From Dehalococcoidia bacterium (GTDB lineage Bacteria; Chloroflexota; Dehalococcoidia; Lucifugimonadales; UBA3495), in NCBI GenBank assembly GCA_965243185.1, contig OZ251531.1, positions 2,214,532 through 2,278,531 of the forward strand: 64,000 nt of DNA. Reading direction: 5' to 3'. Below the pieces are notes generated by a model. That model was not told where the DNA came from. It saw only the letters and a program-made list of their open reading frames with translations, and made no database searches. Below are positions 2,059-42,034 of this stretch, piece after piece (the first letter of the stretch is position 1; the number at the start of each line of letters is the position of its first letter). The position numbers were made by a program, and so were the translations under genes.

Positions 2059-2157
2059 CCCGAAACCATCAGCCCCGGCCTGGGGAAACCCGGTCAAGTC
2101 TTTGCCATCCCTTGGCTATTCCGCCCCCGATTAGTGAATTAACTGGAAAGGTCTGCT

Positions 2158-5025: not shown

Positions 5026-5957
5026 TGGTGGAGCTAATCGTTGACCGCCCCGTGGACCTGGAAGCCAGCTTGCTGGGCGGGCAAGCCCATCGTTGGCGGC
5101 CGGAAACGCCGGACGAAAACCCGGAAACGGAACTGGCGGAAAGCGGGATAATCTGGTACTCTGGCGTCCTCCGCGGCAACTTCATCCGCATCCGCCAAAT
5201 TACTCCCCAACGAATGGAGTTCCATTCTGCCCCCTGGCCGGAGGCAGCCGTTATCCCGCTGCTGCAAAGCTACTTCCGTATGGATGATGACCTCGACAGC
5301 ATCCACGCCCAAATCTGCCAGGATGAACGGGTGGCGGCGATGGCAGACCGCTACCCCGGCTTGCGGATTCTACGGCAAGAGCCGTGGGAGTGTCTGGTGG
5401 CCTACATCTGCTCCGCCAATTCCAACATCAAGCGCATCCATCAGGTATTGGAAAATATCGCCGGGGCTTGCGGCGACCCCATTGACCTGAAGGGCATCCG
5501 TCGCTATGCTTTTCCTAGGCCGGCTGACTTGGCGGCCGCCGGGGAAGCGGAATTGCGCCGCTTGGGGCTGGGGTTTCGCGCTCCCTATGTGGACCGGGCG
5601 GCTCAGGAAGTAGCCAGCGGCGACTTGGACTTGAACGCCCTAGTACGCCTGCCTTATGCCCCGGCTAAAGAACGCTTGCTCGAGTGTTACGGCATCGGCA
5701 GCAAAATCGCCGATTGCATCGCCGTCTTTTCTCTGGAAAAGTTGGAAGCCTTTCCCATCGATGTCTGGGTGCGGCGGGCTTTGGGCGAATGGTACTTCCC
5801 CGGTCAAAAGACGCCCCCGGACCGGGAACTGTTGGCTTGGGCGCAAAGCTACTTCGGCCCCTACGCCGGCTACGCCCAGCAGTACCTCTTTCACGGGCGG
5901 CGTCTGGAAAAACAAACGGTGGAATCCCCGGCAGCGTACCGGGAATCGGGAGGATAG
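5025..5957 (+). CDS. ogg: 8-oxoguanine DNA glycosylase (OGG1 type), paralog 1, canonical
   Basis: OGG_N motif GGQAHRWR; LRQEPWECL; HhH-GPD motif YGIGSKIADC...FPIDVW with Lys and Asp retained. The start overlaps the dinG stop (TGATG). Confidence 0.85.
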   Translation: MVELIVDRPVDLEASLLGGQAHRWRPETPDENPETELAESGIIWYSGVLRGNFIRIRQITPQRMEFHSAPWPEAAVIPLLQSYFRMDDDLDSIHAQICQDERVAAMADRYPGLRILRQEPWECLVAYICSANSNIKRIHQVLENIAGACGDPIDLKGIRRYAFPRPADLAAAGEAELRRLGLGFRAPYVDRAAQEVASGDLDLNALVRLPYAPAKERLLECYGIGSKIADCIAVFSLEKLEAFPIDVWVRRALGEWYFPGQKTPPDRELLAWAQSYFGPYAGYAQQYLFHGRRLEKQTVESPAAYRESGG

Positions 5958-6832: not shown

Positions 6833-6850
6833 GGCAGGCGCGGGGTTGCT

Positions 6851-7708
6851 ATGGAACTGGAATATGACGCCGGCCAGCCGCTGGACTTGAACATATCCCT
6901 GCGGATGGGGCAAGCCTTTCGCTGGAAAGCCGCCGCCGATGGCTGGTTCAGCGGCGTAGTGCGCGGCCAGTTCATCCAAATCCGCAAGGTCCGCGACGGG
7001 CTGCTGGAGTTTCAAGCCGCCCCCGGCCCGGACGCCAAGGCCGCGGCCATCATCAGCGATTACCTGCGGTTGGATGAGGATATTACCGCCATCTATGTCG
7101 ATCTCAGTAAGAGGGACGGGAAAATTGCGGAACTGGTCGCGAAATACCGGGGTTTGCGGATTTTGCGGCAAGAGCCGTGGGAGTGTTTGGTATCATACAT
7201 CCTGTCCGCCCAATCGCCGATACCCCGCATTGAAAGGAATGTTAAGGCGTTGGCCGACCAATTCGGCGACCGTATCGTACCGGGAATGTCGGCATTTCCT
7301 ACGCCGCGGCAACTGGCAGAAGTAAGCCAAGACGAAATTTCCCAAGTGCTGGTCGGATTCAAGCGATACGCCGTGAGCGTATCAGGAGCGGCTCGGGAAG
7401 TTGCGGGCGAGCGGCTGGACTTGGATAGCTTGGCAAAGTTGGATTATGAACCAGCCAAGCAACGGTTAAAGCAGTGTTATGGGGTCGGCGATAAAGTTGC
7501 CGACTGTGTGCTGCTGTTTTCACTGGATAAACCTGAAGCATTTCCGATTGACCGGCACATCGGCCGAGCCTTGTCTGATTACTACTTCCCAAGAGTAAAA
7601 ACGCCGTCTGACGCCAAACTCCGGGATTGGGCGCAAAATCACTTTGGCCGCTACGCCGGCTATGCCGGGCAGTTCCTGTTTTACGAGGAAAGGCCGGTGC
7701 GGAACTAG
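6851..7708 (+). CDS. OGG1-like glycosylase paralog 3
   Basis: MGQAFRWK, LRQEPWECL and YGVGDKVADC...FPIDRH, with Lys and Asp retained. Confidence 0.8.
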   Translation: MELEYDAGQPLDLNISLRMGQAFRWKAAADGWFSGVVRGQFIQIRKVRDGLLEFQAAPGPDAKAAAIISDYLRLDEDITAIYVDLSKRDGKIAELVAKYRGLRILRQEPWECLVSYILSAQSPIPRIERNVKALADQFGDRIVPGMSAFPTPRQLAEVSQDEISQVLVGFKRYAVSVSGAAREVAGERLDLDSLAKLDYEPAKQRLKQCYGVGDKVADCVLLFSLDKPEAFPIDRHIGRALSDYYFPRVKTPSDAKLRDWAQNHFGRYAGYAGQFLFYEERPVRN

Positions 7709-10855: not shown

Positions 10856-11509
10856 ATGACTACGCCCGAAGCCGATTTCCGAACCTACTACGACTTCCGT
10901 TGACCCTTCGTGTATAACGCCGCCATGTGGCTGGCGAAGGTGCGCGAAACCACCGGACAGGACATCACGGTCGACTGGCAGCCCTTCTCTTTGGAGCAGG
11001 TCAACAGCGACAACAAGCTGGCCGAAGGGGAGACTTCGGTCAAGTTCTGGGAACTGCCCGGGGCCTTGGACGGCTCGGACCAGACCTTGCTTTCCCACCG
11101 GGCCGGCTTGGCGGCCAAGCGGCAGGGCAAGGAAGCCTTCGAGTCGTTCTTTATGGCCCTGCTGAAACTGCGCCATGAGGAGCGGCGCAGTCTCACCGAC
11201 CCGGCGGTGATGGAGGAAGCCCTAGCCAACTCCGGCATCGACGCGGCCCGGTTCCGGGAGGATTTGGCCGACCCCGACCTGCTGCGGGAGATTGGGGAAA
11301 GCCATACTACCGCCGTCGAGGAATACGGGGCTTTTGGCGTGCCGACCTATGTTTTCCCCAACGGCAGCACGGCCTTTGTCAAGATGCACATCCCCCCGGC
11401 GGAACAGGCGGGCGAGATTTACGAATCGCTGACCCGGGTGATTACCGACGCCCAGCACGTGGGCGAGGTCAAGCGCCCCTCGCCGCCGTGGCCGCACGGC
11501 ATCATCTAG
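10856..11509 (+). CDS. DsbA-like thioredoxin-fold protein with an in-frame TGA (candidate Sec) at 10901-10903
   Basis: AGGAGGTG RBS then ATG 10856. The frame reads MTTPEADFRTYYDFR-TGA-PFVYNAAMW and continues into the 199-aa track ORF. The TGA falls where the family has the first Cys of CPxC. Confidence 0.7.
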
Positions 11510-23821: not shown

Positions 23822-24172
23822 CTACTCCAACGCCGCCGCCAGTGCCTTCAGGTTCGCCCCGATAATCAGCCGGTCGCCCAGCCGGGTTATCGGCCGCCGC
23901 AGCAAGCGCGGCTCCTCCAGAATCAGCCGACGCAGCTCCGCATCGGCCAGCTCCTGCCCGGCCAACCCCAGCTGATTCAGGCTAGGACTCCGCCACGCAA
24001 ACAGCTCCGACAGCGGCGCCAATCCCGCCAGTTCCTCCAACTCCTCCGGCCGCAGCGGCTCCTTGAAATAATCCCGTTCCGCCACCGCGATCCCCTTCTG
24101 CAAGAGCAACTCTCTCGCCTTGCGGCAGGAACTTCAACGCGGCCACCAGTAAAAAGTTGCTTGTTCCCCCAA
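23822..24172 (-). CDS. ArsC/Spx-family thioredoxin-fold protein with an in-frame TGA (candidate Sec) at 24134-24136
   Basis: GGGAGGG RBS then TTG 24172. The frame reads MGEQATFYWWPR-TGA-SSCRKARELLLQKGI and continues into the 95-aa track ORF. The TGA replaces the first Cys of the family CxxC / PRC motif. Confidence 0.7.
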
Positions 24173-27145: not shown

Positions 27146-27913
27146 CTACTCTTTCCAGAACCGTTCCTCCCGGAACTGCCAACCCTGCGGCGTAACTATT
27201 TCCTTCACCCCGGCAATCATCCCCGGATGCCCGCAGGTATAGACCATCGTATCCTCTGGCGGCAGGTCAAACTCGGCCAGGTAATGCTCCACCAGATTGT
27301 TGAGCCGTCCCGTTGCCCCGGCCCACCCGGCGTTGCGCTCCTCATTAGGACGACTCACCGCCGGCACAAACTTGATAAAATCCGGATACTGCGCCGCCAG
27401 TGCCGCCAACTCCCGGTCATAGGTCAGCTCATCCTGATAACTGGCGCCCAGCAGCACATAAAAATAGTGGCCCGTCCCGCCCTGATGCAGATACTCCCGG
27501 ATGATGCTCAAGTACGGCCCCACCCCGGTCACCGTGGCCAGCATCAAATGATGATGTACCTTTTCGTTCAGGGTAAAAATCCCCTTGGGCCGCGGCCGGA
27601 TGGACATTGTATCCCCCACCGCCATTTGCCACATCTTGGGCGTCAACCCCCCCTCCGGCACCAACTCCACGAAAATCTCCAGCGTCTCCTCGTACGGCGC
27701 GGACACGATGGAATAGGCCCGTTCCACTCCCTCTTTGCCCAGGGTGCAATACTGCCCCGGCTTGAACTTGAACGGCCCCTCCTGCGGCGCCAGCTTCATC
27801 ACCATCAACTCCTCGGTGATGTCCCGCCGTTCAACCAGTTCGGCTTGCGGCAGCTGGTCCGTGCGGTATTGCGGCCGCCCCGGGGCCGCCGCCCTATCGC
27901 TGCTGGTGGTCAT
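27146..27913 (-). CDS. Ferredoxin-NADP+ reductase-type FAD/NAD(P) oxidoreductase
   Basis: RAYSIVS FAD-binding (RxYS) motif and a C-terminal NAD(P)-binding domain; 255 aa. Confidence 0.8.
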   Translation of the reverse strand: MTTSSDRAAAPGRPQYRTDQLPQAELVERRDITEELMVMKLAPQEGPFKFKPGQYCTLGKEGVERAYSIVSAPYEETLEIFVELVPEGGLTPKMWQMAVGDTMSIRPRPKGIFTLNEKVHHHLMLATVTGVGPYLSIIREYLHQGGTGHYFYVLLGASYQDELTYDRELAALAAQYPDFIKFVPAVSRPNEERNAGWAGATGRLNNLVEHYLAEFDLPPEDTMVYTCGHPGMIAGVKEIVTPQGWQFREERFWKE

Positions 27914-28048
27914 CTTTACCTCGCTTCAACTAATTTTCCAGGGATTGCCGGGGACAATTCACCCCGAACGTTTCCCAAACCGTCCGAAACTAAACCGCCG
28001 TCTCCGAACTACCCTCCGGTCAATCCGTCCCCGCCGGCTCGCAATACC

Positions 28049-30910
28049 CTAATCCCCGTTACCGCCCTCCGCCGCCACTTTCACCACCCGCGCCGGCAAA
28101 ATATCCAACCCCGGCACCCGGGACATCGGATCCGGCTCCGTCGAATTCTGCAAATCCACCGCCAGTTGCCCGAACAGAATCGTCGCCGCCACCGTCCCCC
28201 TCGGCCGCGCCGAATCCAGCCGCGCTTGCCCGGCCAGCCGTCCTCCCGGCGTCTGCACTTCCACTGTATCCCCCTCGACAATGCCCCACGCGGCCGCATC
28301 CTCCGGGTTCAACTCCACCACTTCCTCCCGTTCAATGCGGTTGCTACCGCCCGGCCCATCCGCCGTCACCCGGGTATCCCGATCCCGTTGCAGCAGCACC
28401 CGCCCCGGCACAAACCGCGCCGGATAATCCCCATCCACATCCGCCGCGGCCAGCGCCGCCCGGAATTGCGGAATCAGCCAATCCGCCTTGCCCCCGGGAA
28501 AACCATCCTGGTACAGAATCGCCGTCCCGCCGCCGCTTTCCCCCGCCGGCCACTGTAGCCCCCGCTGCTCCTTGCTGACATAAAGCAACTGTGTCGGCTG
28601 CGGACTTTCCAACCCGCTCCGCAAAGTCAACCCCGTTTCCTTTTCCAACCGGGCATAGGATATTCCGGCATAATTGGGAACCACTTCCGCGATTTCATCC
28701 ATCACCGCCCCGGCATCCGGATAGTCAAAGCCGGCCGCGCCCAACCGTTGCCCCAACTGGCAAAACACCCACTGCTCCGGTTTAGCGTTGCCGCTTTGCG
28801 GCTGAAACACCGGCCGCACCCGCTGCACCCGTCGCTCCAAATTGGTATAAGTCCCATCCTTTTCCGCAAAGGATACCCGCGGCAAAACTACCTCCGCCAG
28901 TTGCGCCGGCCGGCTCAGGAAAGTATCCATCACCACCAGAAACTCCAGGTTCTGCAATGCCGCCAACCCGTCCCCCAAGCGGCCGTTCACCAGGTTATAG
29001 CTGTCTCCCACCAGCAGCATTGCCTTGACCGTCCCTTGCCGCGCCGCCGCCGCCATTTGCGGCAAGCCCAAACCGGCCTCCGTTGGCAAAGCGCAGCCCC
29101 ACCGTTCCTCCAGTTCCTGCCGCGCCGGACGTTCCCCCCGCCCGGGTTTCACTCCCGGCAGTAGGTCGTGAACGCAGCCCACATCCACCGCGCCCGCTTC
29201 ATTAGTTCCTTGCGGCAGCGGATAAATCCCTGCCCCCGCCTTGCCCACATTCCCGGTCAGTAACGCCAGGTTCACCAAAGCGTTGACGCAATCCCGCTGC
29301 AAATCCGGGTCGATGTTGTCCAGCGAATAGCAAACCGCGGCCTTATCCGCCTCCCCGAAAAACTCGGCCGCCCGGGCCATTTCCGCCCGCCCCACTCCGG
29401 TAATGGCGGCGATTTCCTCCAGATCCAGGTTGTTCAGGTAGTAATACAGCGTAGCCGGATCCTCGCACCGCTGCTCCACCCATTCCTTATCGACCCGCCC
29501 CTGCTCCACCACTTCCCGCAGTAATCCCCCCAGTAGCAGCAACTCCGTGCCGGGAATCGGCCGCAGCCAGCAGGCGGCGTAGCGGGTCAGCTCTACCTCC
29601 CGGGGGTCAATAACTATCAGCTTCGCCCCGGCTTTCACCGCCCGCTTTATCGGCACCCCCACCACATTGTTGTCCTCGGTCAGGTTGCTGTTGAACACCA
29701 AAATCGCCCCGGCCCGCTCCAAATCCCAAATCGGATTGGTCGCCCACCGGTAACCCAAGGCTTGCTCCAACCCCCCGGTCAATTCCGGCTGCAAGTTGGA
29801 AGTCAAGTCCACATTGTTGGACTGCATCGCCACCCGCGCCAACTTCTGCGCCAGGTAATGCTCCTCCGTAGTCCCGTTGGGCGCTGCCAACAGCCCGAAA
29901 GCCGCTCCCCGGTACTCGGCCAGCCGTTGGGCAATGTAGTCCAACGCCTCCTCCCAGCTGCATTCCGTCAGTTGCCCCTCCCGCCGTAGCAGCGGCGTCT
30001 GCAACCGGTCGCCCCGGTTAATAAACTCCAACCCGAACTTCCCCTTGAAACACCCTTGCCCCCGGTTGGCGGGCGAATTATATTCCGGCACCACCCGAAT
30101 CAGCTGCCCGTCCCCGTTCAGCTCCAAATTCAGCTGACAGCCCACCGGGCAGTGCGGGCAAATCGTCCGTTCCACCCGCCGCGCCTTTTCCCACTTGTGT
30201 TCCCGCTCCACCAACGCCCCTACCGGGCAGACATCAATACACGCCCCGCAAAACTCGCACCCCGACTCCAGTAGCGATGACCCGAAAGAAGTCCCCACCA
30301 ACGCCTTGCCCGACCGTTCGGTGAAACAAATAGCGTCATCCCCCCGGATTTCCTCACACGCCCGCACGCACCGCCCGCAGGTGATGCACAGGTTATAGTC
30401 CCGGTCATAAAAGGGATCCGCCACTTCCAGCGGAATCTGCTTGTATTTATAGTTCAGCGGCGACTCCAGCTCCATCCCCAGATAGCGCACCGTATCCTTG
30501 AACTCGCACCGCTCATTCTTGGGACAGGTAACGCAGCGGTCATTCACCGCCACATGACGCAGGCAAATATCCTGCGGCCCGCAAATGTCAATCCGATGGC
30601 AGGTCAGGCAGCCGTTGGGATGTTCCGCAATCAGCATCTGCATTACCGACCGCCGCAGTTCGTTCACATCCCGCGTCTCGCTGCGAATTCGCATCCCGTC
30701 CGCCGCCGGCAAAGTGCAGGCCGCCGGAAAGCCCCGCCCGCCTTCGACCGCCACCACGCACATTCGGCAGGCCGCGTACGGCTCCATCCCCGGATGGTAG
30801 CACAGATACGGAACATAGATGCCGGCGTCAATGGCCGCTTCCAGGACCATTTTGCCCCGTTCCGTAGTTATCTCCACCCCGTCAATGGCGATGGTAATTT
30901 CCTCAGCCAT
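28049..30910 (-). CDS. nuoG: NuoG-like Fe-S / molybdopterin-oxidoreductase-fold subunit (FdsA architecture, no catalytic Cys/Sec)
   Basis: N-terminal 2Fe-2S motif (CYHPGMEPYAACRMC), 4Fe-4S motifs and CPHCPVGC. At the formate dehydrogenase Cys/Sec-His position the sequence reads NNVDLTSNLQPE. Confidence 0.8.
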   Translation of the reverse strand: MAEEITIAIDGVEITTERGKMVLEAAIDAGIYVPYLCYHPGMEPYAACRMCVVAVEGGRGFPAACTLPAADGMRIRSETRDVNELRRSVMQMLIAEHPNGCLTCHRIDICGPQDICLRHVAVNDRCVTCPKNERCEFKDTVRYLGMELESPLNYKYKQIPLEVADPFYDRDYNLCITCGRCVRACEEIRGDDAICFTERSGKALVGTSFGSSLLESGCEFCGACIDVCPVGALVEREHKWEKARRVERTICPHCPVGCQLNLELNGDGQLIRVVPEYNSPANRGQGCFKGKFGLEFINRGDRLQTPLLRREGQLTECSWEEALDYIAQRLAEYRGAAFGLLAAPNGTTEEHYLAQKLARVAMQSNNVDLTSNLQPELTGGLEQALGYRWATNPIWDLERAGAILVFNSNLTEDNNVVGVPIKRAVKAGAKLIVIDPREVELTRYAACWLRPIPGTELLLLGGLLREVVEQGRVDKEWVEQRCEDPATLYYYLNNLDLEEIAAITGVGRAEMARAAEFFGEADKAAVCYSLDNIDPDLQRDCVNALVNLALLTGNVGKAGAGIYPLPQGTNEAGAVDVGCVHDLLPGVKPGRGERPARQELEERWGCALPTEAGLGLPQMAAAARQGTVKAMLLVGDSYNLVNGRLGDGLAALQNLEFLVVMDTFLSRPAQLAEVVLPRVSFAEKDGTYTNLERRVQRVRPVFQPQSGNAKPEQWVFCQLGQRLGAAGFDYPDAGAVMDEIAEVVPNYAGISYARLEKETGLTLRSGLESPQPTQLLYVSKEQRGLQWPAGESGGGTAILYQDGFPGGKADWLIPQFRAALAAADVDGDYPARFVPGRVLLQRDRDTRVTADGPGGSNRIEREEVVELNPEDAAAWGIVEGDTVEVQTPGGRLAGQARLDSARPRGTVAATILFGQLAVDLQNSTEPDPMSRVPGLDILPARVVKVAAEGGNGD

Positions 30911-30955
30911 TCAATCCTCGCGCAGCCCTTGCCCAATGCTGCTGCTAATCGTCAA

Positions 30956-32680
30956 CTACCGCCGGCTCAGCCGCGGCGTAAAATGCGGCTCCCCGCACCG
31001 GCCGGTCGGACACCGCTTCTCCTCAATATGCGCCGCAAACTCCTCGGGAAAATACCGCAGCGCCGACGCCACCGGGCTGAACCCCAATTGCCCATGCCCG
31101 CACAGCGAACCGGCTTGCATATTCAACCCCACCGACCGCATCAAATCCAAATCCTCCGGGCCGCCCTCCAGCCGTCCAATCCGCTCCAACGCCTCCAGCA
31201 GATGACTCATCCCCATCCGACAGGGAAAGCACTTGCCGCAGGACTCGTACTGGCAAAAGGCAATCAATACCCGCGTCAAATCCACCACGCAGGCATCATC
31301 CCCCGCGGCGATTATCCCCCCGGAACCCAAAATCGCCCCGGCATTGCGAAACACCTCAAAATCCAGCAGCAAATCCGCCGCATCGATCCCCAGCACGCCC
31401 CCCAACGGCCCCCCGGTCTGAATAAACTTCAACTTCCGGCCCGCCGGCGGCCCCCCGGCAATTTCATACAGCACCTCTTGCAGGTTCAACCCCATCGGCA
31501 GCTCCACCATTCCGGTATAATTCAACGCCCCGCTCAGGCACAAAATCACCGTCCCGGTGCTGCGCTCGTGGCCGATGCCCGCAAACCACTCTCCGCCCTT
31601 GGCGATAATCTCCGGCACATACGCCAAAGTTTTGACATTGTTGATATTGGTCGGCTTCCCGAAAACTCCCACTTGCGCCGGAAACGGCGGCCGGTACCGC
31701 GGCATCGACCGCTTCCCCTCAATGGCCTCCATCAACGCCGTTTCCTCCCCGGCAACATAGGAATCCCCGGTTAAAGCCACCTCCAGGTCAAACTGGAACC
31801 CCGACCCCAGAATATCCGCCCCCAGTAGTCCCAACTCGTAGGCTTGCGCCACCGCCGCCTTGGCCCGCTCAATCGGCCCATCGTGCCCGTGCCGAATGAA
31901 AATATACCCGTAGTTGGCCCCGGTAGCGTACCCGGCCAGTATCATCCCCTCCACTACCGTATGCGGGTCGCTCTCCAAAATCCCCTTATCGTTAAACGCC
32001 CCCGGGTCGCCCTCCTCGCAGTTGCACAGAATATACTTGTCCGCCGCCCCGTTATCCGCCAGAAACTTCCACTTAACCCCGGTGGCAAAGGCCGCGCCGC
32101 CGCGCCCCCGCAGCCCCGACGCCGTAACCTCCTCCCTTACCCCCTCCGGCGTCATTGCCGTCAACGCCTGCTGCAAAGCCGCGTAACCCCCGTTAGCCAC
32201 ATACTGGTAAATATCCAGCGGGTCAATCTGCCCGGCATTCCGCAAAGCAATCCGCTGCTCCTTAACCCGCATCGGATGCCGGTTCAAGTCCGGCAGCCCA
32301 ATGCCGCCGCTGTCATCCCCCTCGGGATAAATGCAGCCCAACGCAGCCGCCGCTACCGGTACGCCCCCGACAATATGGGACGCCACAATTTCCTCGGCCA
32401 ATTCCGGGCTGACCTTCCCGTAAAAAACCCGCGCCTGCCCCGGCACGGCCACCTCCACCAACGGCTCCGCAAAGCACAGCCCCAAGCAGCCCACCCGACT
32501 CACCACCGCATCCAAACCCCGCCTTGCCAACGCCGTCTCCAGCGCCGCCGCCGCTTCCTCCGCTCCCGCCGCCTGCCCGCACAACGCCGTCCCCACCCGC
32601 AGCCACGGCCGCCCGCCGGCCGTCAACTCCGTCCAGCGGCTGGCCGCGGCGGCCTGGATTTCCTCAAAAGTGGGGAACAT
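30956..32680 (-). CDS. nuoF: NuoF-like NADH-binding FMN/4Fe-4S subunit with an N-terminal extension
   Basis: GRGGAAFATGVKW FMN/NADH motif and ESCGKCFPCR 4Fe-4S motif. Confidence 0.88.
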   Translation of the reverse strand: MFPTFEEIQAAAASRWTELTAGGRPWLRVGTALCGQAAGAEEAAAALETALARRGLDAVVSRVGCLGLCFAEPLVEVAVPGQARVFYGKVSPELAEEIVASHIVGGVPVAAAALGCIYPEGDDSGGIGLPDLNRHPMRVKEQRIALRNAGQIDPLDIYQYVANGGYAALQQALTAMTPEGVREEVTASGLRGRGGAAFATGVKWKFLADNGAADKYILCNCEEGDPGAFNDKGILESDPHTVVEGMILAGYATGANYGYIFIRHGHDGPIERAKAAVAQAYELGLLGADILGSGFQFDLEVALTGDSYVAGEETALMEAIEGKRSMPRYRPPFPAQVGVFGKPTNINNVKTLAYVPEIIAKGGEWFAGIGHERSTGTVILCLSGALNYTGMVELPMGLNLQEVLYEIAGGPPAGRKLKFIQTGGPLGGVLGIDAADLLLDFEVFRNAGAILGSGGIIAAGDDACVVDLTRVLIAFCQYESCGKCFPCRMGMSHLLEALERIGRLEGGPEDLDLMRSVGLNMQAGSLCGHGQLGFSPVASALRYFPEEFAAHIEEKRCPTGRCGEPHFTPRLSRR

Positions 32681-32688
32681 ACCGAACT

Positions 32689-33162
32689 TTACTCCGGAGA
32701 CTGACCCAAGGCTTGGGTCACCCGGCGGCCCGCTTCCTCCGGCGAAAGCCGGCCGACTAAATGATGATTAACCGACATCACCGGCGCCAGGGCGCAGGCC
32801 CCCAAGCAGGTATTGTACCGCACCGACAGCCGCCCGTCCGGGGTATCGCCTTCCTCCTCCAACCCGGCCGCCGCCAGCGTCGCCGCAATCACCGGCATTG
32901 CCCCAACCAAATGGCACGACGGCCCCCAGCAGACCTCAATCCGCTGCTCGCAAGGCGGCGTCGTGCGAAAATTGGGATAAAAGGACACCACCGCCCAAAC
33001 ATCATTGACCGTAGCCTGGTTGAACTCCGCCACCGCCGCCACCGCTTCCTTGGGGATATACCCCAATTCATCCTCCACCGCCAGCAGCGACGACAGAATC
33101 GTAATCGTCCGTTGCGGCTGCCGCGCCACCGCCCGGCTGCTCCGTTCCTTCAGCCCATCCAT
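32689..33162 (-). CDS. nuoE: NuoE-like 2Fe-2S thioredoxin-like subunit
   Basis: CWGPSCHLVG ... CLGACALAP cysteine pattern. Start set at MDGLKER. Confidence 0.85.
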   Translation of the reverse strand: MDGLKERSSRAVARQPQRTITILSSLLAVEDELGYIPKEAVAAVAEFNQATVNDVWAVVSFYPNFRTTPPCEQRIEVCWGPSCHLVGAMPVIAATLAAAGLEEEGDTPDGRLSVRYNTCLGACALAPVMSVNHHLVGRLSPEEAGRRVTQALGQSPE

Positions 33163-33284
33163 CTGCCGGGAACCTGACCTCTGCCTAAATACTCTGCGCC
33201 TGACTATCGCCCCGCCCCGTAACCCCGCCGGAATGTTACCACAGGAAAATAGGCGGTTCAACCAATTTTCCCGCCGCCAGCCCC

Positions 33285-33929
33285 CTACTCCCCCTGCAAA
33301 TACTGCCGCATCGCCGACCGGAAAATATCGTATGGATGCGCCCCGGTGAACATCAAATTCCCCACCACAAAGGTCGGAATCCCCCGGATCCCGTACTGCA
33401 ACGCCTCCTGATACTGCTGCATCACCACCCCCGAATAGGTATGCGCCGCCAAATGCTCCAGCAGCTCCTCGGCATTCAGCGATACCGCCCGCGCCACCTC
33501 CGCCAACGCCGCCGGCTGCCCCAAATCCAGCCCTTCCTCCCAATAGGCTTTATAGGCGGCGTGATGAAACTCCAGAAACTTCCCCTGCTGCTGGGCATAC
33601 TCCGTCGCTTCCAGCGCATACAGCGTATTCGGCGTAACCGCCGGCGGCCGCATAATCAATCCGGCCTCCCGCACCTGCGACCGAATCGGTTCCGCCAATT
33701 CCTCCGCCGTTTCCCCGGCCCGCGGCTGCCGCTGCAAACCCTCCTGCGGCGTATCCGGCCGCAACAGATAAGCCCGCCCCTCCACGGCGATGTTGTAATC
33801 CTGACCCAACTTGTCAACCCGCTCCAGGCCGACATAGCACCAGGGTCAAATATAGTCATACCAGACGATAACCCGCACCGGCTCCGTCCCCTTGCCCCCC
33901 GCCGCCATCCCCTGCGCCGCTTCCTCCAT
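33285..33929 (-). CDS. DsbA/FrnE-like oxidoreductase with an in-frame TGA (candidate Sec) at 33846-33848
   Basis: AGGAGG RBS then ATG 33929. The frame reads ...PVRVIVWYDYI-TGA-PWCYVGLERVDKLGQDY and continues into the 174-aa track ORF. The TGA replaces the first Cys of CPWC. Confidence 0.75.
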
Positions 33930-34018
33930 AACCAACCTCCTGTTCAACCGGACTTACCCGCCCGGCGCGAGCAATCCTCGGTAAAACTCCCGGCCCCTGG
34001 TGAATTGAATCAGCCCCC

Positions 34019-34795
34019 CTACTCCGCCGCCTGCTCCCCATAGGAATACTCCGCCGCCATCCCCTTCCCTTGTGGCGGCATCAACGACCCCGGCGCCGCC
34101 GCCAGCAGCCCATCCAACTCATCCAAACCCGCTATCCGGACGCAATCTGTCACCTCCCGCTGCCATCCGCCCCGATCCAGCAGCACCGGATAAATCCCGG
34201 CGGAACGCGCCCCCAACACATCCGAACGCGGCTGATCGCCGATATGCACCGCCTCGCCCGGCAGCGCATCCACCCGGGCCAGCGCCGCCGCAAAAAACTC
34301 CGCCGCCGGCTTCTCCACCCCCGCCTCCGCCGCCGTCAAACAAAAATCCAGATACGGCGCCAACCCCATCCGGTCGCAAAGCTCATCCATATCCCGCCGC
34401 AGGTTGGTGATAACCCCCAGCCGGTAGCCCTGATCCCGCAGCCGCGCCAACGCCGGCCGCGCATCCGGAAAGGCCGCAAAATCCTTGGGAACGCTAATGG
34501 CAATTTCCCAGATTTGCCGCGCCAAATCCCGCGACACCGCCAACCCCGCCTTCTCCAGCAGGATTTGCTCATAGCGGGCGAAAAAAGCCAGCCGCTCCGC
34601 CGCGCTCCGCTCCGCCAGCGGCTTAACCTCATTCTCCCGGTTAAAATACACATCCGCCACCGCATAGCCGTACTTAATGCCCTCGGCATCCACCTTCAGC
34701 CCCAACTCCCGGCACGCCGCCTGCTGAATCTGATCCAACGGCGGCCAGAACCGCGCCAGCGTATTGTAGAAGTCGAAAAATACGGCTTTAATCAT
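34019..34795 (-). CDS. HAD-superfamily hydrolase
   Basis: MIKAVFFDFYNTL (DxD-type motif I) and a C-terminal HIGDQPRSDVLGA motif. Confidence 0.8.
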   Translation of the reverse strand: MIKAVFFDFYNTLARFWPPLDQIQQAACRELGLKVDAEGIKYGYAVADVYFNRENEVKPLAERSAAERLAFFARYEQILLEKAGLAVSRDLARQIWEIAISVPKDFAAFPDARPALARLRDQGYRLGVITNLRRDMDELCDRMGLAPYLDFCLTAAEAGVEKPAAEFFAAALARVDALPGEAVHIGDQPRSDVLGARSAGIYPVLLDRGGWQREVTDCVRIAGLDELDGLLAAAPGSLMPPQGKGMAAEYSYGEQAAE

Positions 34796-34954
34796 CGCCC
34801 CTGCCCCAATCGGCTTTTGCCCACCCGATGGCCTTGGTAGCACCGGGTCAATATCTACTACTCCGGCCTTTCCCTGAACCCTCCGGCTTGGAAAAGCCCT
34901 TGCGCCCCGCCATTCTAGCACACCCGCCCAACTTGTGCATCACCCCGGGCAACT

Positions 34955-35236: not shown

Positions 35237-35369
35237 ACGCAGATTGTTGCTTTGCAATACCAAGCCCGGTTGCGCGGTAAAATCTGCCTTAACTAAAAAT
35301 GCTCTGAAAGCAAATGGAGACATCGCGGGGATTAAGGCACAGCGGCCGCCGGGCGGCAAGGAGCTATTG

Positions 35370-38300
35370 ATGGACGGAGATGGAGCAAATCGTCTCTTTT
35401 TCTGCCCGGCCGGGCCAGCGGCCGCGGCGGCCTTGGGATCTTATGTCCGGGCCATACAAGGGGATGACCCCTTGGCGCCGGTTACCGTGGTCGGGCCATC
35501 GACTTACGCCAACCTGGCCTTGCGGCGGGAGTTGGGGCGCGGCGGGTTGGCTAATGTGGGATTTGTGCATCCGCATCGGTTGGCCGATTTGTTGGGTGGG
35601 CCGCGGCTGGCGGCGCGGGGATTGCGGCCGCTGACGCCGCTAGTGGAAAGCCAAGCCCTACGGCAGGCGGTGAGCCAGACGGACGGCTTGCTGCGGGAAA
35701 AAGGCTACCATCCCGCTACGCACCGGACGCTAAAGGCGGCGATACGGGAACTGGCGCAGCTCTCCCCGGCGGAAAAGACGGCGTGGCAAGGGCGCGGCAG
35801 CCAGTTGAGCCGGGAGATATTGCAGATTGAGACCGCCTTTCGGGAGCTTACGGCCGGTTACTACACCGAGGCCGAGGATTTGGCGCAGGCGGCGGCGTAC
35901 GGGGTAAGAACCGGCGGACAGGGCAACGCCCTGACCGACTTGGGATTGGTGATTTTCTTTCAACTGCGGCGGATTACGGCGGGGCAGCAGGAGCTTATTG
36001 AATCGTTAGCGGCCGCCGGTAAATGCGCCGTTTTTTTGCCGCTGGTGGGCGATGACGAAGGCGACCGGGCGGCGCGGGAAATCGCGGAACGATTGACCGG
36101 CGCTTTGGGGACGCCGACGGTTTATGCTGAGGTTGGGTCAAGTAGGGATGGAAATGCGCCGCCCGCCGACCGGGTTTCCGGGATGCGGCTGCTGGTAGCC
36201 CAAGACGCCCATCAGGAAATACGGTGGGTTATCCGCAACATTTTCCGCCAGATCAGCAGCGGTACGCCGCTGCACCGGATCGCGGTTCTGTATCGGCAGA
36301 CTTTCTACGGCGCGCTGATACCGGAGGAGTTGGCATTAGCCGGTCTGCCGGCAGCCGGGCCAAATACGACGCCGCTGACGCAAACCGGGCCGGGGCGGAC
36401 GCTGACCGGCTTGGTCAACTTGGCGCAAGGCGTCCGGGCGGCGCAAGGGCGGGAACTGCCCCGGGAGGAAGTTACGGCGTGGCTGACCGCTTGCCCGGTG
36501 CGCTTTCCGGGCGGGTTAGCGGCGGATTTTAACCCCAGCCAGTGGGACAATATATCCAAGCAAGCCGGCATCGTCCGGGGCTTGGCGCAGTGGCAGGATA
36601 AGCTGAGCCGGTTGGCTAGTGACCGGGCGCGGCAAGCGGAACGTTTAGCTGCGCAGGGGGAAGTGTCCGAGGCCAAGGCGGAATTGATGGCGGCGGAAAG
36701 CCGGGCCGCCGGACAACTGCGCGGGTTTATTACCGGGTTGGCGGCGGCGTTGATGCCGCCAGCCGAGGGCAGTTCGTGGGGCGAGTTTGCTCAGTGGGTC
36801 AGGAAACTGCTGGAACGCTACGGGGCGGCGGCTACCCTGTCCGATGCCGAAGCGCAAAACCGGGAACGGATTGGCGAAGTAGTAGCAAGCCTGGCCGAAC
36901 TGGATCAACTGGAGACCGGCGGTATCGGGTCTGACCGGTTCCGGGAGACTCTGGATGAAGCCTTGGCCGGAACGCCGGGACGCTTGGGGGCAACGGGGCA
37001 AGGGGTCTTTGTTGCGCCGTTAAGCCAAGCGGCCGGAATGTCCTTTGACGCGGTACATCTGGTCGGAATGGTCGAGGGGGCGTTTCCGCCGCCACTACGG
37101 GAATCGCCGCTGCTGCCGGAGTCGGAAAAACCGGCTGAAGTGGGCGCTGGTTGGCGGCCATCCCGGTCGGAACGGTTAGCCGATGAGCGGCACAACTTTA
37201 TGGCGGCCCTGGCGGCGGCGCCGCTGCAAACCCTTTCCTATCCCTTGGCCGACGCCGGCGGTTCCCGGGGCAACTACCCGTCCCGGTGGTTTCTGGAACA
37301 GGCAACGCGGCTGGAAGGGAAAGCGGTGCGGAGTTCCACCCTGAAATCCCTGGTCAATCAAAAGGAGTGGCTGACCGCCATCGGTTCCCCGGAACAGGAA
37401 TTTGGCAGCATCGCGGGTTTGGCGGCGGCCGACCAGCACGATTATGACCTGGCAAGTTTGTGGGATTGCCGGGAACGGAGCGGCGGCATTCGGCAGCATC
37501 CCCTGGCTAAAGAGGGCATCCTGGCCGGCGCGCTGCAAGTAGGTCGGAGCCGCTACAATCCCTATTACGGCTCCTACTTTTCGGAATGGAACGGCAACTT
37601 GGCTGGGGCCGCCGGCCCGTCGGGATTGGCCGGCGGGTTGAGCGGACAAGTGCTTTCGCCGACCGGCTTGGAAAAGTGGTCCAACTGCCCCTTCAGCTAC
37701 TTTCTGGGGCAGCAACTGCGGTTGAGCGCGCAGGACAGCCCGGAGGACATCTACCGCATATCGGCCTTGGAGCAGGGTTCGCTGATCCACGAAATCCTGG
37801 AGCAGTTTATCGGGCAAGCCCGGGAGCGGGGAACGGTGCCGCCGCCGGGGCAAGGGTGGACGGATGCGGACGCCGGGGTTTTGCAGGAAATTGCGGAAAG
37901 GGCGTTCCAGGAAGCGGAAAGCCGGGGCATTACCGGACGGACGCTGCTGTGGCGAATGTCCCAAGCGGATATTCGGGATGATTTGACGGCATTTCTCGAA
38001 GCGGATACGTATGTGCGGGAACGGTTCGGCTTGTCGCCGGCGCGGGAGGAAGCGCGGTTCGGCATTGACGGCGACAACGCCGCCGATAGCTGGGCGGCGG
38101 CGGTCTATCGGCTGCGGGACGGGACGGAAATACGGTTCCGGGGCGTGATTGACCGGGTTGACCGGTCGGCAGACGGGCGGGCGGCTTTGGTGCTGGACTA
38201 CAAGAGCGGGGGCGCCAGTCGGTACGCCGGTTTGGAGGAGGATGCCATTGATAAGGGGCGGCGATTGCAGTTGGGCATTTACGGACTGGCGGCGCAGCAG

Positions 38301-38663
38301 GCTTTGGGCGCGGAAGTGCAGGTGCGGGCGGCGTACTGGTTCGTGAGCAGCCGGGGCGGGTTCAAGCTGATACCCGAGGAGCCGGTGCGTATGGAGGATG
38401 CGGCGGTGCAGGAACGGTTTGAGGAAGGCATCGCCGCCATCGTCTCCGGGATTCGGGGCGGCGTGTTTCCGGCTAATCCGGGGCCGTGGGATTTCAACAG
38501 TTTCTTGGGCAAGTCCAACGGCAAGAACTGCCATTACTGCGATTTTGACGCCCTGTGTCCGGCGCGGCGGGTGAACCTGTGGGAACGGCTGAAAGGCCGC
38601 CGGGAAAATCAGCGGGCCCTGGCCGGCTATCTGGAATTGGCTGAGGAGGAGTCTGAGGAATGA
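35370..38663 (+). CDS. addB: AddB/AdnA-like helicase-nuclease subunit (PD-(D/E)XK nuclease with C-terminal Fe-S cysteines)
   Basis: About 1100 aa. C-terminal DYKSG nuclease motif and CHYCDFDALCP. AAGGAG RBS before ATG 35370. The stop overlaps the next gene's start (ATGA). Confidence 0.75.
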   Translation: MDGDGANRLFFCPAGPAAAAALGSYVRAIQGDDPLAPVTVVGPSTYANLALRRELGRGGLANVGFVHPHRLADLLGGPRLAARGLRPLTPLVESQALRQAVSQTDGLLREKGYHPATHRTLKAAIRELAQLSPAEKTAWQGRGSQLSREILQIETAFRELTAGYYTEAEDLAQAAAYGVRTGGQGNALTDLGLVIFFQLRRITAGQQELIESLAAAGKCAVFLPLVGDDEGDRAAREIAERLTGALGTPTVYAEVGSSRDGNAPPADRVSGMRLLVAQDAHQEIRWVIRNIFRQISSGTPLHRIAVLYRQTFYGALIPEELALAGLPAAGPNTTPLTQTGPGRTLTGLVNLAQGVRAAQGRELPREEVTAWLTACPVRFPGGLAADFNPSQWDNISKQAGIVRGLAQWQDKLSRLASDRARQAERLAAQGEVSEAKAELMAAESRAAGQLRGFITGLAAALMPPAEGSSWGEFAQWVRKLLERYGAAATLSDAEAQNRERIGEVVASLAELDQLETGGIGSDRFRETLDEALAGTPGRLGATGQGVFVAPLSQAAGMSFDAVHLVGMVEGAFPPPLRESPLLPESEKPAEVGAGWRPSRSERLADERHNFMAALAAAPLQTLSYPLADAGGSRGNYPSRWFLEQATRLEGKAVRSSTLKSLVNQKEWLTAIGSPEQEFGSIAGLAAADQHDYDLASLWDCRERSGGIRQHPLAKEGILAGALQVGRSRYNPYYGSYFSEWNGNLAGAAGPSGLAGGLSGQVLSPTGLEKWSNCPFSYFLGQQLRLSAQDSPEDIYRISALEQGSLIHEILEQFIGQARERGTVPPPGQGWTDADAGVLQEIAERAFQEAESRGITGRTLLWRMSQADIRDDLTAFLEADTYVRERFGLSPAREEARFGIDGDNAADSWAAAVYRLRDGTEIRFRGVIDRVDRSADGRAALVLDYKSGGASRYAGLEEDAIDKGRRLQLGIYGLAAQQALGAEVQVRAAYWFVSSRGGFKLIPEEPVRMEDAAVQERFEEGIAAIVSGIRGGVFPANPGPWDFNSFLGKSNGKNCHYCDFDALCPARRVNLWERLKGRRENQRALAGYLELAEEESEE

Positions 38664-41600
38664 CCAGCGCATTTACGCCGCAGGATGACGCCGCCCGGCA
38701 GCGGATCTTGCACGGGTTGGGCGATACCCTTTTTGTCGAAGCCGGCGCTGGCACCGGCAAAACCACCAGCTTGGTGGGTCGAGTGGCAAACCTGGTTTCC
38801 AGCGGCGCAACTACCTTGGATCGGGTAGCGGCCATTACCTTTACCGAAGCGGCGGCGGCGGAACTGCGCGACAAAATCCGGGAACGATTAGAGGAGTCGG
38901 CGGCGCCGGATTCGGCGTTGCGCGACCTTGAACGGGAACGGTGCGAGCGGGGATTAGCCGACCTGGATCAGGCATCCTTTCAGACTTTGCACAGTTTCGC
39001 CGGCGGCCTGCTGCGGGAGCGGCCGCTGGAAGCCGGGCTGCCCATTGCCTTTCAGATTGCCGACCCCATTGTCAGCCAGTTGGATTTTGACCGGGCGTGG
39101 CGGGATTGGCTGGATACGGCGTTGGAAAGGGAGGAGTTACAGGTACCGCTGACTATGGCTTTGTCTTTGGGATTGAACCTGACGCGATTGCGGGAGGTAG
39201 CCGTCGCCTTTCACCAGAATTATGACATCGTGGAACAGACGGATTTTGAGGATGGAGAGGACTCCGAGGATAAGGAGCCGGCAAATCCGGTAGCCGGTCA
39301 ACTGGCGGCGGAAGCGGATGAACTGGCGCGGCTGTGCGGTTACTCCCGGTTGGGCGCGGAGGATGCCCTGTATCAGCATACGCAGGGGGTAATTGCCGCC
39401 GGCCGCCGCCTGGACGGGATGAACCCCACGGCGGCGGAAAGCTATCGGCTGCTGCAAAAAGTGCGGCTGTCCTGCGGCCGCGGCCGGCAAGGGGATTGGG
39501 ATAACGACCCTAAATCGGGCGGCAACGCTTGCAAACTGCTGAAAGACCGGCTTAAAGAACTGCAAGCTGCCGCCAATGATGAATTGGCCGCGGCCCGACG
39601 CCAATCCCTGTTGCTACTGCTGCGGGAACTGCGGACTTTCGTTCTGGACTACGCGGCGCAACGGAAGGCGGCGGGCAAGGCGGAATATAATGACCTGCTG
39701 ATTTGGGCGCGGGATTTGCTGCGGGACAACCTGGCAGCCCGGGATTACTTTCGGGGGCGGTTTTCCCATCTGCTGATTGACGAAGTGCAGGATACGGATC
39801 CCATCCAAGCGGAAATCGCAATGTTTCTGGCCGAAGCGGTTACGCCGGGGATAGCGGCCGCCGGGCGTCCCCAAGAGTGGGAAGCGATTACCCCGGAAGC
39901 CGGCAAACTGTTCGTCGTGGGCGACCCGAAACAGTCCATCTATCGGTTTCGGCGGGCCGATGTGCGGCAGATGAACCGGCTGCGGCAACGAATGGGCGGG
40001 GAAACTCTGCAACTGACCCAAAACTTCCGCTCCCAGCGGCCGGTTATCGCTTGGGTCAACCGACTCTTTGAGCAGTGGATGAGGCAAGGCAGCCCGGAGC
40101 AAGCCCAGTATGTGGACTTAATCCACCGCTGGGACGGGGCGTCGGAACATCTCCAGAAGCCGGGAGTGTGGCGGCTGGGCGCCGGCATTGACGAAAATGT
40201 TAATGCAGTACGGCGGGAAGGCGCGGAAGCAGTGGCCAGCCTGCTGTCCGGCATTCCGGGGGAAGGCTGGCCAGTGCGGGATACGGCCGCTGCCGGGGAA
40301 CAGTACCGGGACGCCGGCTTTTCCGATGTGTGCATCCTGATGCCGCGGCGGACTTCCCTGCGGGAGTTGGAGCAGGCGTTGGATGACGCTGACCTACCGT
40401 ATCGGCTGGAGGGTTCGTCGCTGATTTTTGACACCCAGGAAGTGCGGGATTTGCTGAACTGCCTGCGGGCCATTGACGACCCGGCGAATCAAGTAGCCAT
40501 TGCGGCGGCGCTGCGCTCGCCGGCCTTCGGCTGTTCCGATATTTCCCTGCTGGAGTTGGTACAGGCGGGCGGCAGTTTTGACTATCTGGCCGAACTGCCG
40601 ACAGCGGCGGCGGCCGGGCCGGCCAGTCAGGGTTTGCGCGAATTGAAAGGGTATCACTACGCCCGGCTGGAGGAATCGCCGGCTTTGCTGATGGAGCGGT
40701 TTATCCGGGAGCGGCAGCTGATGGCGGCGGCGTTGGAACAGCAACGGCCGCGGCAGCAGTGGCGGCGGTATCGGTTTATGATTAACCAGACGCGGGCCTT
40801 TACCGAAGCCGGCGGCGGTTCCCTGAGGGAGTTTTTGAGTTGGGCGGAACAGCAAGCGGCGGAAAATGCGCGGGTTACTGAAACGCCGGTTCCCGAGGAG
40901 CAAGAGGAAGCGGTGCGGGTGATGACGGTCCACGGAGCCAAGGGGCTGGAGTTTCCGATAGTGATTCTGACCGGGTTGGATTCGGGCAGTCCGAACCGCA
41001 CTGAGACCGTATTGGTGGACCGGGAACGGGGGCAAGTCGAGGTTCGGATGGGCAGCGGCAGTCAGGTTTTTGAGACGCCGGGCTATGCCGAACTACGGGA
41101 ACGGGAAGGGCAGCTTGGCGCGGATGAAGCGGTACGGCTGCTCTATGTAGCGGCAACCCGGGCCAAAGAGCATCTGGTGGTGAATATGTACCACCGGGAG
41201 GAAGGGCGGGATTGCCCGGCCCGGCAAATCGCCGCCTTGCTGGAAAGCGATGATGGAACGGGAATGTGGGAAAGGATTGACGCGCCGCCCCTCGACCCAG
41301 CGGCGGCCGAATTGTTAGCGGCGGCGGCCCCGGCAACGCCGGAAACGGCAAGGGATTTTATGGGGCAGCGGGAGCGGTGGCGTCAAGAACGGGCGAAACT
41401 AATCCGGGCGCAGAGCCGGCCGATTTCCGTAGCGGCCACTACCCTGGCCCGGGTGGCTAAAGAGGAAGCGGCCGAAACGGCGGCTGAAACCGAACCGTGG
41501 CGGCGGGGGCGCGGCGGAACTTCAATCGGGCGGGCGGTACACGCCGTCCTACAAACCATTGACCTGGCGACCGGGGAAGGATTAGCGGAAACGGCCCAAG

Positions 41601-42034
41601 CCCAAGCCGCCGGGGAGAATATCCCGGGGCGGCGGCAGGAAATTATTGACTTGGTCCAAGTAGCTTTAGATAGCCCGGCAGTGCGGCGGGCGGTGGCGTC
41701 CGGGCGGTACTGGCGGGAAGTGCCGGTAGCCGCGCCTTTGGGCGACGGGCTGGTCGAGGGCTTTATCGACCTGCTCTATGAAACCGAGGGCGGGTTGGCC
41801 GTGGTCGATTACAAGACGGACGATATTGACGCGGCGGAAACCGGGGAGACGCTGCAACGTTACCGGTTGCAGGGCGGCACCTACGCTTTGGCCGTGGAGC
41901 GGGCGACGGGGAAAGCAGTAAAGGAAGTCGCGTTCCTGTTCCTGCGCCCCAACCGGGAGGAACGGCTGACCGACATCGGGCAACTGACCGCGGAAGCGGA
42001 AGGGCGGGCGTTGGCGTATTTGCAGGGCGGGTAG
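38660..42034 (+). CDS. addA: AddA/AdnB/RecB-like UvrD-family helicase-nuclease
   Basis: Walker A AGAGTGKT, DEVQDT, VMTVHGAKGLEFP, and a C-terminal GFIDLLY...VVDYKTD nuclease motif. Confidence 0.85.
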   Translation: MTSAFTPQDDAARQRILHGLGDTLFVEAGAGTGKTTSLVGRVANLVSSGATTLDRVAAITFTEAAAAELRDKIRERLEESAAPDSALRDLERERCERGLADLDQASFQTLHSFAGGLLRERPLEAGLPIAFQIADPIVSQLDFDRAWRDWLDTALEREELQVPLTMALSLGLNLTRLREVAVAFHQNYDIVEQTDFEDGEDSEDKEPANPVAGQLAAEADELARLCGYSRLGAEDALYQHTQGVIAAGRRLDGMNPTAAESYRLLQKVRLSCGRGRQGDWDNDPKSGGNACKLLKDRLKELQAAANDELAAARRQSLLLLLRELRTFVLDYAAQRKAAGKAEYNDLLIWARDLLRDNLAARDYFRGRFSHLLIDEVQDTDPIQAEIAMFLAEAVTPGIAAAGRPQEWEAITPEAGKLFVVGDPKQSIYRFRRADVRQMNRLRQRMGGETLQLTQNFRSQRPVIAWVNRLFEQWMRQGSPEQAQYVDLIHRWDGASEHLQKPGVWRLGAGIDENVNAVRREGAEAVASLLSGIPGEGWPVRDTAAAGEQYRDAGFSDVCILMPRRTSLRELEQALDDADLPYRLEGSSLIFDTQEVRDLLNCLRAIDDPANQVAIAAALRSPAFGCSDISLLELVQAGGSFDYLAELPTAAAAGPASQGLRELKGYHYARLEESPALLMERFIRERQLMAAALEQQRPRQQWRRYRFMINQTRAFTEAGGGSLREFLSWAEQQAAENARVTETPVPEEQEEAVRVMTVHGAKGLEFPIVILTGLDSGSPNRTETVLVDRERGQVEVRMGSGSQVFETPGYAELREREGQLGADEAVRLLYVAATRAKEHLVVNMYHREEGRDCPARQIAALLESDDGTGMWERIDAPPLDPAAAELLAAAAPATPETARDFMGQRERWRQERAKLIRAQSRPISVAATTLARVAKEEAAETAAETEPWRRGRGGTSIGRAVHAVLQTIDLATGEGLAETAQAQAAGENIPGRRQEIIDLVQVALDSPAVRRAVASGRYWREVPVAAPLGDGLVEGFIDLLYETEGGLAVVDYKTDDIDAAETGETLQRYRLQGGTYALAVERATGKAVKEVAFLFLRPNREERLTDIGQLTAEAEGRALAYLQGG

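Follow-up and report, generated by a model that had tools for sequence, protein, structure and literature searches.

The data presented concern a 64,000-nucleotide stretch of the genome of a Dehalococcoidia bacterium (contig OZ251531.1 of assembly GCA_965243185.1, positions 2,214,532 to 2,278,531), referred to here as the window. On its minus strand, the region 33285..33929 probably encodes a selenocysteine (Sec)-decoded thiol-disulfide oxidoreductase of the FrnE type with the redox motif U28-P-W-C31, and we put the probability of this reading, which is built on sequence comparison, at roughly 0.92. The evidence that carries it is the placement of a single in-frame TGA at the first position of the redox motif of a DsbA-family protein, together with the persistence of that TGA in related genomes and the constraint on the nucleotides that follow it.

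Bacterial Sec insertion requires SelB-GTP with Sec-tRNA(Sec), bound to an in-frame Sec insertion sequence (SECIS) 11-12 nt past the UGA. In the window, translation would begin at ATG 33929, and the hairpin at 33834-33812, acting as a bacterial SECIS, would prevent termination at UGA 33848-33846. By recruiting SelB-GTP and Sec-tRNA(Sec) the hairpin would allow Sec to be inserted and the 214-residue protein to be completed. Sec28 would then be the exposed nucleophile, cycling between a selenolate/thiol state and a U28-C31 selenenylsulfide and exchanging with cytoplasmic substrate disulfides or thiols, as Cys-type FrnE does with CPWC, and the selenol, with its low pKa and strong nucleophilicity, would speed thiol-disulfide exchange. 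That the inserted residue is Sec, that SelB binds the SECIS and that the enzyme is cytoplasmic is what we infer from the comparisons below.

The TGA at the redox-active cysteine position

The TGA is the single internal stop of the 214-codon frame and has the context PVRVIVWYDYI-TGA-PWCYVGLERVDKLGQDY. With U written as C, the product matches the Pfam DSBA family (PF01323) with E = 9.2e-35 and a score of 120.6 bits (cut-off 25.6); the match takes in residues 20-207 of the protein and positions 2-190 of the 191 in the profile. Its best solved relatives by sequence are FrnE of Deinococcus radiodurans (5cnw/5cp1, E = 8e-14) and also SCO1869 (3gl5), and the CPWCY of both aligns on U-P-W-C-Y. In an alignment with 16 Cys-type homologues, all of which carry the motif CP[WFY]C, the U column is Cys in 16/16, and D25, P29, C31 and P185 are invariant; the last of these lies in a G-I-P-T-F loop that we take, from general knowledge of the thioredoxin and DsbA fold, to be the cis-proline loop opposite the active site. 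P0121, which at 46% identity is the nearest Cys-type homologue, has a TGC codon at the U column. Furthermore, when 1.84 billion cluster representatives were searched exhaustively with HMMER, the fragment after the UGA found 4,289 relatives, many of them full-length Cys forms. An initial annotation, made from the letters of the DNA, had called the gene DsbA/FrnE-like, had placed the TGA at the first Cys of the family motif and had proposed comparison with Cys-containing homologues; the family match, the alignment with FrnE and the Cys found at the TGA column all agree with it. The same annotation described an AGGAGG Shine-Dalgarno sequence and the start at ATG 33929, both of which are present, although the spacing between them is 6 nt rather than the 7 nt it gave (Table 1).

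A single scan of species-representative genomes yielded 37 loci from the Dehalococcoidia, the SAR202 cluster and the Chloroflexota, 36 of which contain the TGA site; counts out of 37 sequences refer to these 36 loci plus the window. The orthologues share 56-97% protein identity with the window protein and the tblastn matches run across the TGA, which stands at the same codon in 36/36 orthologous loci, each from a different species genome. Upstream of it, an in-frame ATG with a GGAGG-type Shine-Dalgarno sequence and no intervening stop is present in 37/37 sequences (conservation of the Shine-Dalgarno sequence itself is counted once as 37/37 and once as nearly all orthologues), and in 33 of the 37 the ATG lies exactly 24 codons before the TGA. 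The peptide that precedes the TGA is conserved as PVRVxVWYDY[IV], while its third codon positions vary (normalised synonymous entropy 0.63) and its Val residues use four codons about equally. The site is thus judged to be beyond chance because the TGA is kept across other genomes, not because of the hairpin alone.

TGA also serves as an ordinary stop in these genomes. It terminates 8 of the 38 coding-like long open reading frames (ORFs) of the window and 88 of the 289 counted over all loci, and 7 of the 37 DsbA-like orthologues end with it too; it is therefore not generally reassigned in the lineage. As an observation in its own right, stop usage is odd for a G+C content of about 60%: the window has 21 TAG, 9 TAA and 8 TGA stops, and the coding-like long ORFs of all sequences have 117 TAG, 88 TGA and 84 TAA, with TAG the commonest, all of these counts being approximate and obtained with a crude frame-specific G+C filter. 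TAG-rich, TGA-poor stop usage alongside a large selenoproteome is an oddity of the lineage.

The hairpin downstream of the UGA

The TGA is followed by an 11-nt spacer, CCCUGGUGCUA, and then by the 23-nt element UGUCGGCCU-GGAGC-GGGUUGACA. ViennaRNA folds the 23-mer into a hairpin of 10 bp with a 3-nt loop, or equivalently of 9 bp with a GGAGC loop, at -12.0 kcal/mol, reproducing both the position and the fold that the initial annotation had worked out by hand. In the window the UGA and the apical loop are about 20 nt apart. According to the published model of the bacterial SECIS (bSECIS; PMC13188914), such an element has a 4-16 bp stem, a 3-9 nt loop with a G among its first two positions, 16-37 nt between UGA and loop, and a minimum free energy (MFE) at or below -7.5 kcal/mol. 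A SECIS prediction had been proposed as a check on the gene, and these constraints hold in 37/37 sequences, with stems of 6-10 bp, loops of 3-6 nt beginning with G, GG or UG, UGA-loop spacings of about 19-21 nt and MFEs from -8.0 to -14.0 kcal/mol.

The cross-genome comparison also bears on the helix itself. The two arms (alignment columns 22-29 with 35-42) are paired in 92% of cells over the 37 sequences, and the figure falls to 25-50% when the register is slid by 1-3 nt. Codons that form the stem are near-fixed (Val as GTC in 31/31, Gly as GGC in 37/37, Leu as CTG in 36/37) and the two loop codons, for Glu and Arg, are free to vary. Codons +1 to +12 have a normalised synonymous entropy of 0.33-0.38, compared with 0.77 for the 120 other codons scored, and a synonymous trough of this kind is the mark of an RNA element lying within coding sequence. 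The substitutions seen within the helix comprise two compensatory changes, each in a single sequence (G-C to A-U in L036, C-G to U-A in L022), and five changes from G-C to G-U. No Rfam family covers the hairpin, the window giving no match there at gathering thresholds.

Competing readings of the UGA and the Sec machinery

Several results weigh against the Sec reading. The fold of the region is only modestly more stable than dinucleotide shuffles (z is -1.2 over 71 nt and -2.5 over 60 nt); a hairpin alone is not beyond chance in coding DNA of 61% G+C, and the case therefore rests on the comparison across genomes. Covariation is weak, with 32 of 500 shuffles reaching the same count of changes on both sides, because the hairpin arms hardly vary. 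The Cys-type homologue P0121 (locus L081, 262-915) also folds at this place, at -11.5 kcal/mol, so that folding energy is not diagnostic and was dropped as a discriminating criterion. The loop of the P0121 hairpin has no G in its first two positions; the hairpin could be due to chance in G+C-rich coding DNA or could be a SECIS relic, and it is one sequence only. Finally, the 64-kb window and the fetched flanks yielded no selA, selB, selD or tRNA-Sec gene. SelA, SelB and SelD were absent from the Pfam matches of the window, where essentially every long coding-like ORF was scanned, and ARAGORN, run on the window and on the 37 loci, detected neither a tRNA nor a tRNA-Sec.

This last result is one of the points in favour of the strongest competing reading, that the UGA is read through with a residue other than Sec, either Cys via tRNA-Cys(UCA) and SelB or a near-cognate Trp or Gly, giving a CPWC-type or an inactive FrnE. 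DNA cannot distinguish Sec from Cys at a SECIS-dependent UGA, and a SelB route to Cys at UGA is attributed to Vargas-Rodriguez et al. 2018 where that work is cited in PMC13582414. The reading is nevertheless improbable. The DsbA-like family is catalogued as a selenoprotein family, and long-term fixation of UGA, with no TGC or TGT orthologue at an identity of at least 56%, is hard to explain if the product carries Cys, because a single TGA to TGC or TGT change would give Cys without any machinery. Furthermore, the BSepDB database (2026; PMC13326102), which takes in a species only if two or more of SelA, SelB and SelD have been found in it, ranks two Dehalococcoidia genomes in its top ten. Dehalococcoidia bacterium UBA1141 is listed there with 49 selenoprotein genes and 'Dehalococcoidia bacterium 10f4566d-ab44-49ae-b774-fc9f760c6436' with 46. 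The second is a sister genome that carries one of the orthologues analysed here (L022), and it is thereby credited with the Sec pathway. The ranking also agrees with the selenoprotein-rich redox proteome that the initial annotation had suggested for the lineage.

Less probable still is that the TGA is a genuine stop, in which case the locus would yield a 27-residue peptide and a separate 174-aa protein, starting at TTG 33809 and devoid of the active site. Gene callers annotate the locus in this way: the exact 174-aa product is in NCBI and ENA, and the best 120 database homologues are all short gene calls of 150-183 aa that cover 70-84% of the protein. These short calls begin at differing places, and about half of the orthologues have CTG in place of TTG 33809, so that no start downstream of the TGA is conserved; what is conserved is the Shine-Dalgarno sequence and ATG upstream of it. 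The upstream peptide is itself the first beta-strand of the DSBA domain together with the active-site motif, and its amino acids are conserved while synonymous sites change freely; without U28, the product would be left with a single Cys and no redox pair. That a sequencing or assembly error, or a mutation in a pseudogene, has turned TGC or TGT into the TGA has a negligible chance of being right. The codons are one base change apart, and the initial annotation had named artefact as what would overturn its proposal, but the same TGA is shared by 36 further species-level genomes, closed chromosomes among them, that come from many independent projects. This effectively refutes an artefact, and both flanks of the TGA are under purifying selection. 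Taken together, the comparisons rule out sequencing error, pseudogene and split gene, and leave site-specific recoding, most probably with Sec, as the reading of the UGA.

Two other genes of the window bear on the same question (Table 1). The initial annotation had counted three Sec-type thiol oxidoreductases in the 64 kb, and the TGAs of the other two are conserved as well. In the second DsbA-like gene, whose motif lacks a resolving Cys, TGA 10901 is kept in all marine metagenome loci covering the site (39/39; L038-L079), and a hairpin of the GCCGCC/GGCUGGC type, likewise conserved, lies 3' of it; the motif YYDFR-U-PFVY fits the DxxUP motif of 'DsbA-like form 2' in a 2026 review (PMC13188914). 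The ArsC/Spx-like gene matches NF041106, 'ArsC family (seleno)protein', below cut-off (E = 3e-8), and has a probable TTG start about 12 codons 5' of its TGA and a hairpin 3' of it, the stem of which has an apparent A-U to G-C compensatory change. Its database homologues are shortened to about 95-100 aa. TGA 24136 is conserved in 4/4 related Dehalococcoidia genomes (L082-L085), as are an ATG 12 codons 5' of the TGA and the position just downstream of mutS, and three of these four genomes also carry the DsbA-like orthologue. Three genes with a conserved UGA at a redox Cys position are therefore independent evidence that the lineage decodes UGA at such sites.

Two further in-frame TGA codons with coding-like sequence around them did not qualify as Sec candidates. 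TGA 54492 (+) serves a HEAT-repeat gene as its ordinary stop, with the ATG of a PNPOx-like gene directly after it, and TGA 7195 (-) falls in an ORF without a family match that is antisense to validated 8-oxoguanine DNA glycosylase (OGG) genes. These OGG genes, at 5004-5954 (+) and 6833-7705 (+), are two paralogues (OGG_N + HhH-GPD) 0.9 kb apart, in a stretch rich in DNA-repair genes that includes a DinG-like exonuclease-helicase (2143-5022), MutL, MutS and an AddAB-like pair (35244-42031).

Genomic neighbourhood of the predicted selenoprotein gene

The most conserved neighbour of the predicted selenoprotein gene is the HAD-type hydrolase gene immediately upstream, which is found in that position and on the same strand in 33/36 orthologous loci. 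Downstream, the initial annotation had reported a NuoEFG-like module; a module does adjoin the gene, but it is better described as FdsG/FdsB/FdsA-like, of the formate-dehydrogenase type, and it is adjacent in about half of the orthologous loci (18/36, at variable distance and inverted in L014). The molybdopterin subunit of this module does not use Sec, because its ORF is uninterrupted. A promoter/terminator scan, otherwise uninformative on the operon structure, found no terminator-like site in either intergenic gap flanking the selenoprotein gene, and co-transcription with its neighbours is therefore possible.

Table 1. Positions of the predicted selenoprotein gene, its parts, its neighbours and the other TGA-containing candidates in the window
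Feature	Position	Strand	Remarks
DsbA/FrnE-like selenoprotein coding sequence (predicted)	33285..33929	minus	214 codons including Sec28; stop TAG 33287-33285; from translation
Shine-Dalgarno AGGAGG	33936..33941	minus	6 nt 5' of ATG
ATG start codon	33927..33929	minus	27 codons 5' of TGA
In-frame UGA, codon 28	33846..33848	minus	first (nucleophilic) position of the U-P-W-C redox motif
TGC, Cys31	33837..33839	minus	resolving Cys of UPWC; column invariant in alignment with Cys-type homologues
SECIS-type hairpin UGUCGGCCU-GGAGC-GGGUUGACA (candidate)	33812..33834	minus	23 nt; starts 12 nt after UGA
CCG, Pro185 in G-I-P-T-F	33375..33377	minus	column invariant against Cys-type homologues
HAD-type hydrolase gene	34022..34921	minus	Pfam Hydrolase/HAD_2; immediately upstream, gap about 90 nt
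FdsG/NuoE-like gene	32692-33177	minus	NF004638 FdsG, E = 5e-27
NuoF-like gene	30959-32680	minus	TIGR01959 NuoF, E = 1.5e-128; 574 aa, N-terminal extension
Fdh-alpha/NuoG-type molybdopterin subunit	28052-30910	minus	TIGR01591, E = 2.8e-138, below cut-off; 953 aa
Four-gene module including FNR-like reductase gene	27149-33177	minus	directly downstream of the selenoprotein gene
Second DsbA-like gene	10856-11509; TGA 10901-10903	plus	PF01323, E = 1e-19; YYDFR-U-PFVY, no resolving Cys
ArsC/Spx-like gene	23822-24172; TGA 24136-24134	minus	PF03960, E = 6e-15; motif YWWPR-U-SSCRKA

The neighbourhood gives no firm substrate for the DsbA-like selenoprotein. It might be imagined that Sec-FrnE and the HAD hydrolase make up a conserved two-gene unit with a dedicated redox-dependent function in aerobic marine and sponge-associated SAR202/Dehalococcoidia, in which Sec has been fixed as Cys cannot substitute for it, although we regard this as speculative and unlikely.

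Comparison with known selenoproteins and DsbA-family enzymes

The gene belongs to an already known selenoprotein family, and the selenoprotein richness of its lineage has also been published already. The DsbA-like selenoprotein (COG2761, UxxC) was described as a new family from nine sequences in Sargasso Sea data (Zhang, Fomenko, Gladyshev 2005; PMC1088965), was found in four bacterial genomes in 2006 (PMC1794560) and in 41 organisms in 2016 (PMC5029168), and is listed in the 2026 review as 'DsbA-like protein form 1, PF01323, UxxC' (PMC13188914). The scientific weight of the present case is accordingly small, as it adds one more correctly decoded copy of a family known since 2005, and its practical value is annotation. 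The locus is on public record (NCBI, ENA) only as the product of 33288-33809 (-), with its start at TTG 33809, and the best 120 homologues have either no name or that of 'predicted DsbA family dithiol-disulfide isomerase'. The half-motif of the active site is thus missing from the annotated proteomes of the clade, and metabolic reconstructions of SAR202/Dehalococcoidia that build on these calls, which lack the active site, miss this enzyme and at least two more in 64 kb. What may be new, in a minor way, is the clade-wide fixation of Sec without a Cys orthologue above about 50% identity, the tight linkage to the HAD hydrolase and the short public gene calls; the clade-wide fixation also offers a clean data set for the study of Sec retention at CxxC sites.

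Among characterised proteins the closest comparison is with D. radiodurans FrnE, a cytoplasmic DsbA-family disulfide isomerase/oxidoreductase, which matches over residues 14-206 and shares with the window protein the lack of a signal peptide and a G-[IV]-P loop. FrnE has Cys rather than Sec and, at 260 aa, has a C-terminal extension without counterpart in the window protein, the match ending at chain residue 214. The tail of D. radiodurans FrnE carries a second Cys pair, CxxxxC. No such second C-terminal pair occurs in the window protein, in which C31 is the sole Cys and which ends at residue 214 with ...RQYLQGE, and the wider family is probably not defined by the Cys-pair tail.

Escherichia coli DsbA has the thioredoxin fold with a helical insertion, belongs to the same Pfam family and has its CxxC (CPHC) at the same structural position. 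It is a secreted periplasmic disulfide oxidant that is reoxidised by DsbB. The window protein, in contrast, has a non-hydrophobic N-terminus and no DsbB-like neighbour, and classical DsbA chains score only E ~4e-4 against it. Read directly, its N-terminus, MEEAAQGMAAGGKGTEPVR, is acidic and polar without a hydrophobic core, and lacks the signal peptide of classical periplasmic DsbA; the N-termini of the orthologues are likewise polar. The product is therefore predicted to be a cytoplasmic FrnE-type enzyme and not a secreted DsbA, because of this polar N-terminus without a hydrophobic segment and because C31 is its only Cys. Similarity to the 2-hydroxychromene-2-carboxylate isomerase/kappa-GST branch of PF01323 (3fz5, E = 7e-10; 2imd, E = 4e-5) ranks below that to FrnE and, unlike that branch, the window protein retains the full dithiol-type U/CxxC pair typical of FrnE-type oxidoreductases.

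At the level of the RNA, the hairpin resembles the E. coli fdhF-type and consensus bSECIS in lying inside the coding sequence, 11-12 nt after the UGA, with GG opening a small apical loop, although its primary sequence is unrelated to that of the fdhF SECIS. The agreement with DsbA-like form 1 extends to every defining feature that was tested, which is why the gene is assigned to the known family: PF01323, UxxC with Sec first, and a stem-loop with a G-containing apical loop just 3' of the UGA. Cys-type homologues are widespread for form 1 and for the window gene alike. No difference from form 1 was found, the published representatives (AACY01178397, NIP15863.1) having been set beside the window gene by description only, and here the Sec form appears to be fixed across the whole Dehalococcoidia/SAR202 clade.

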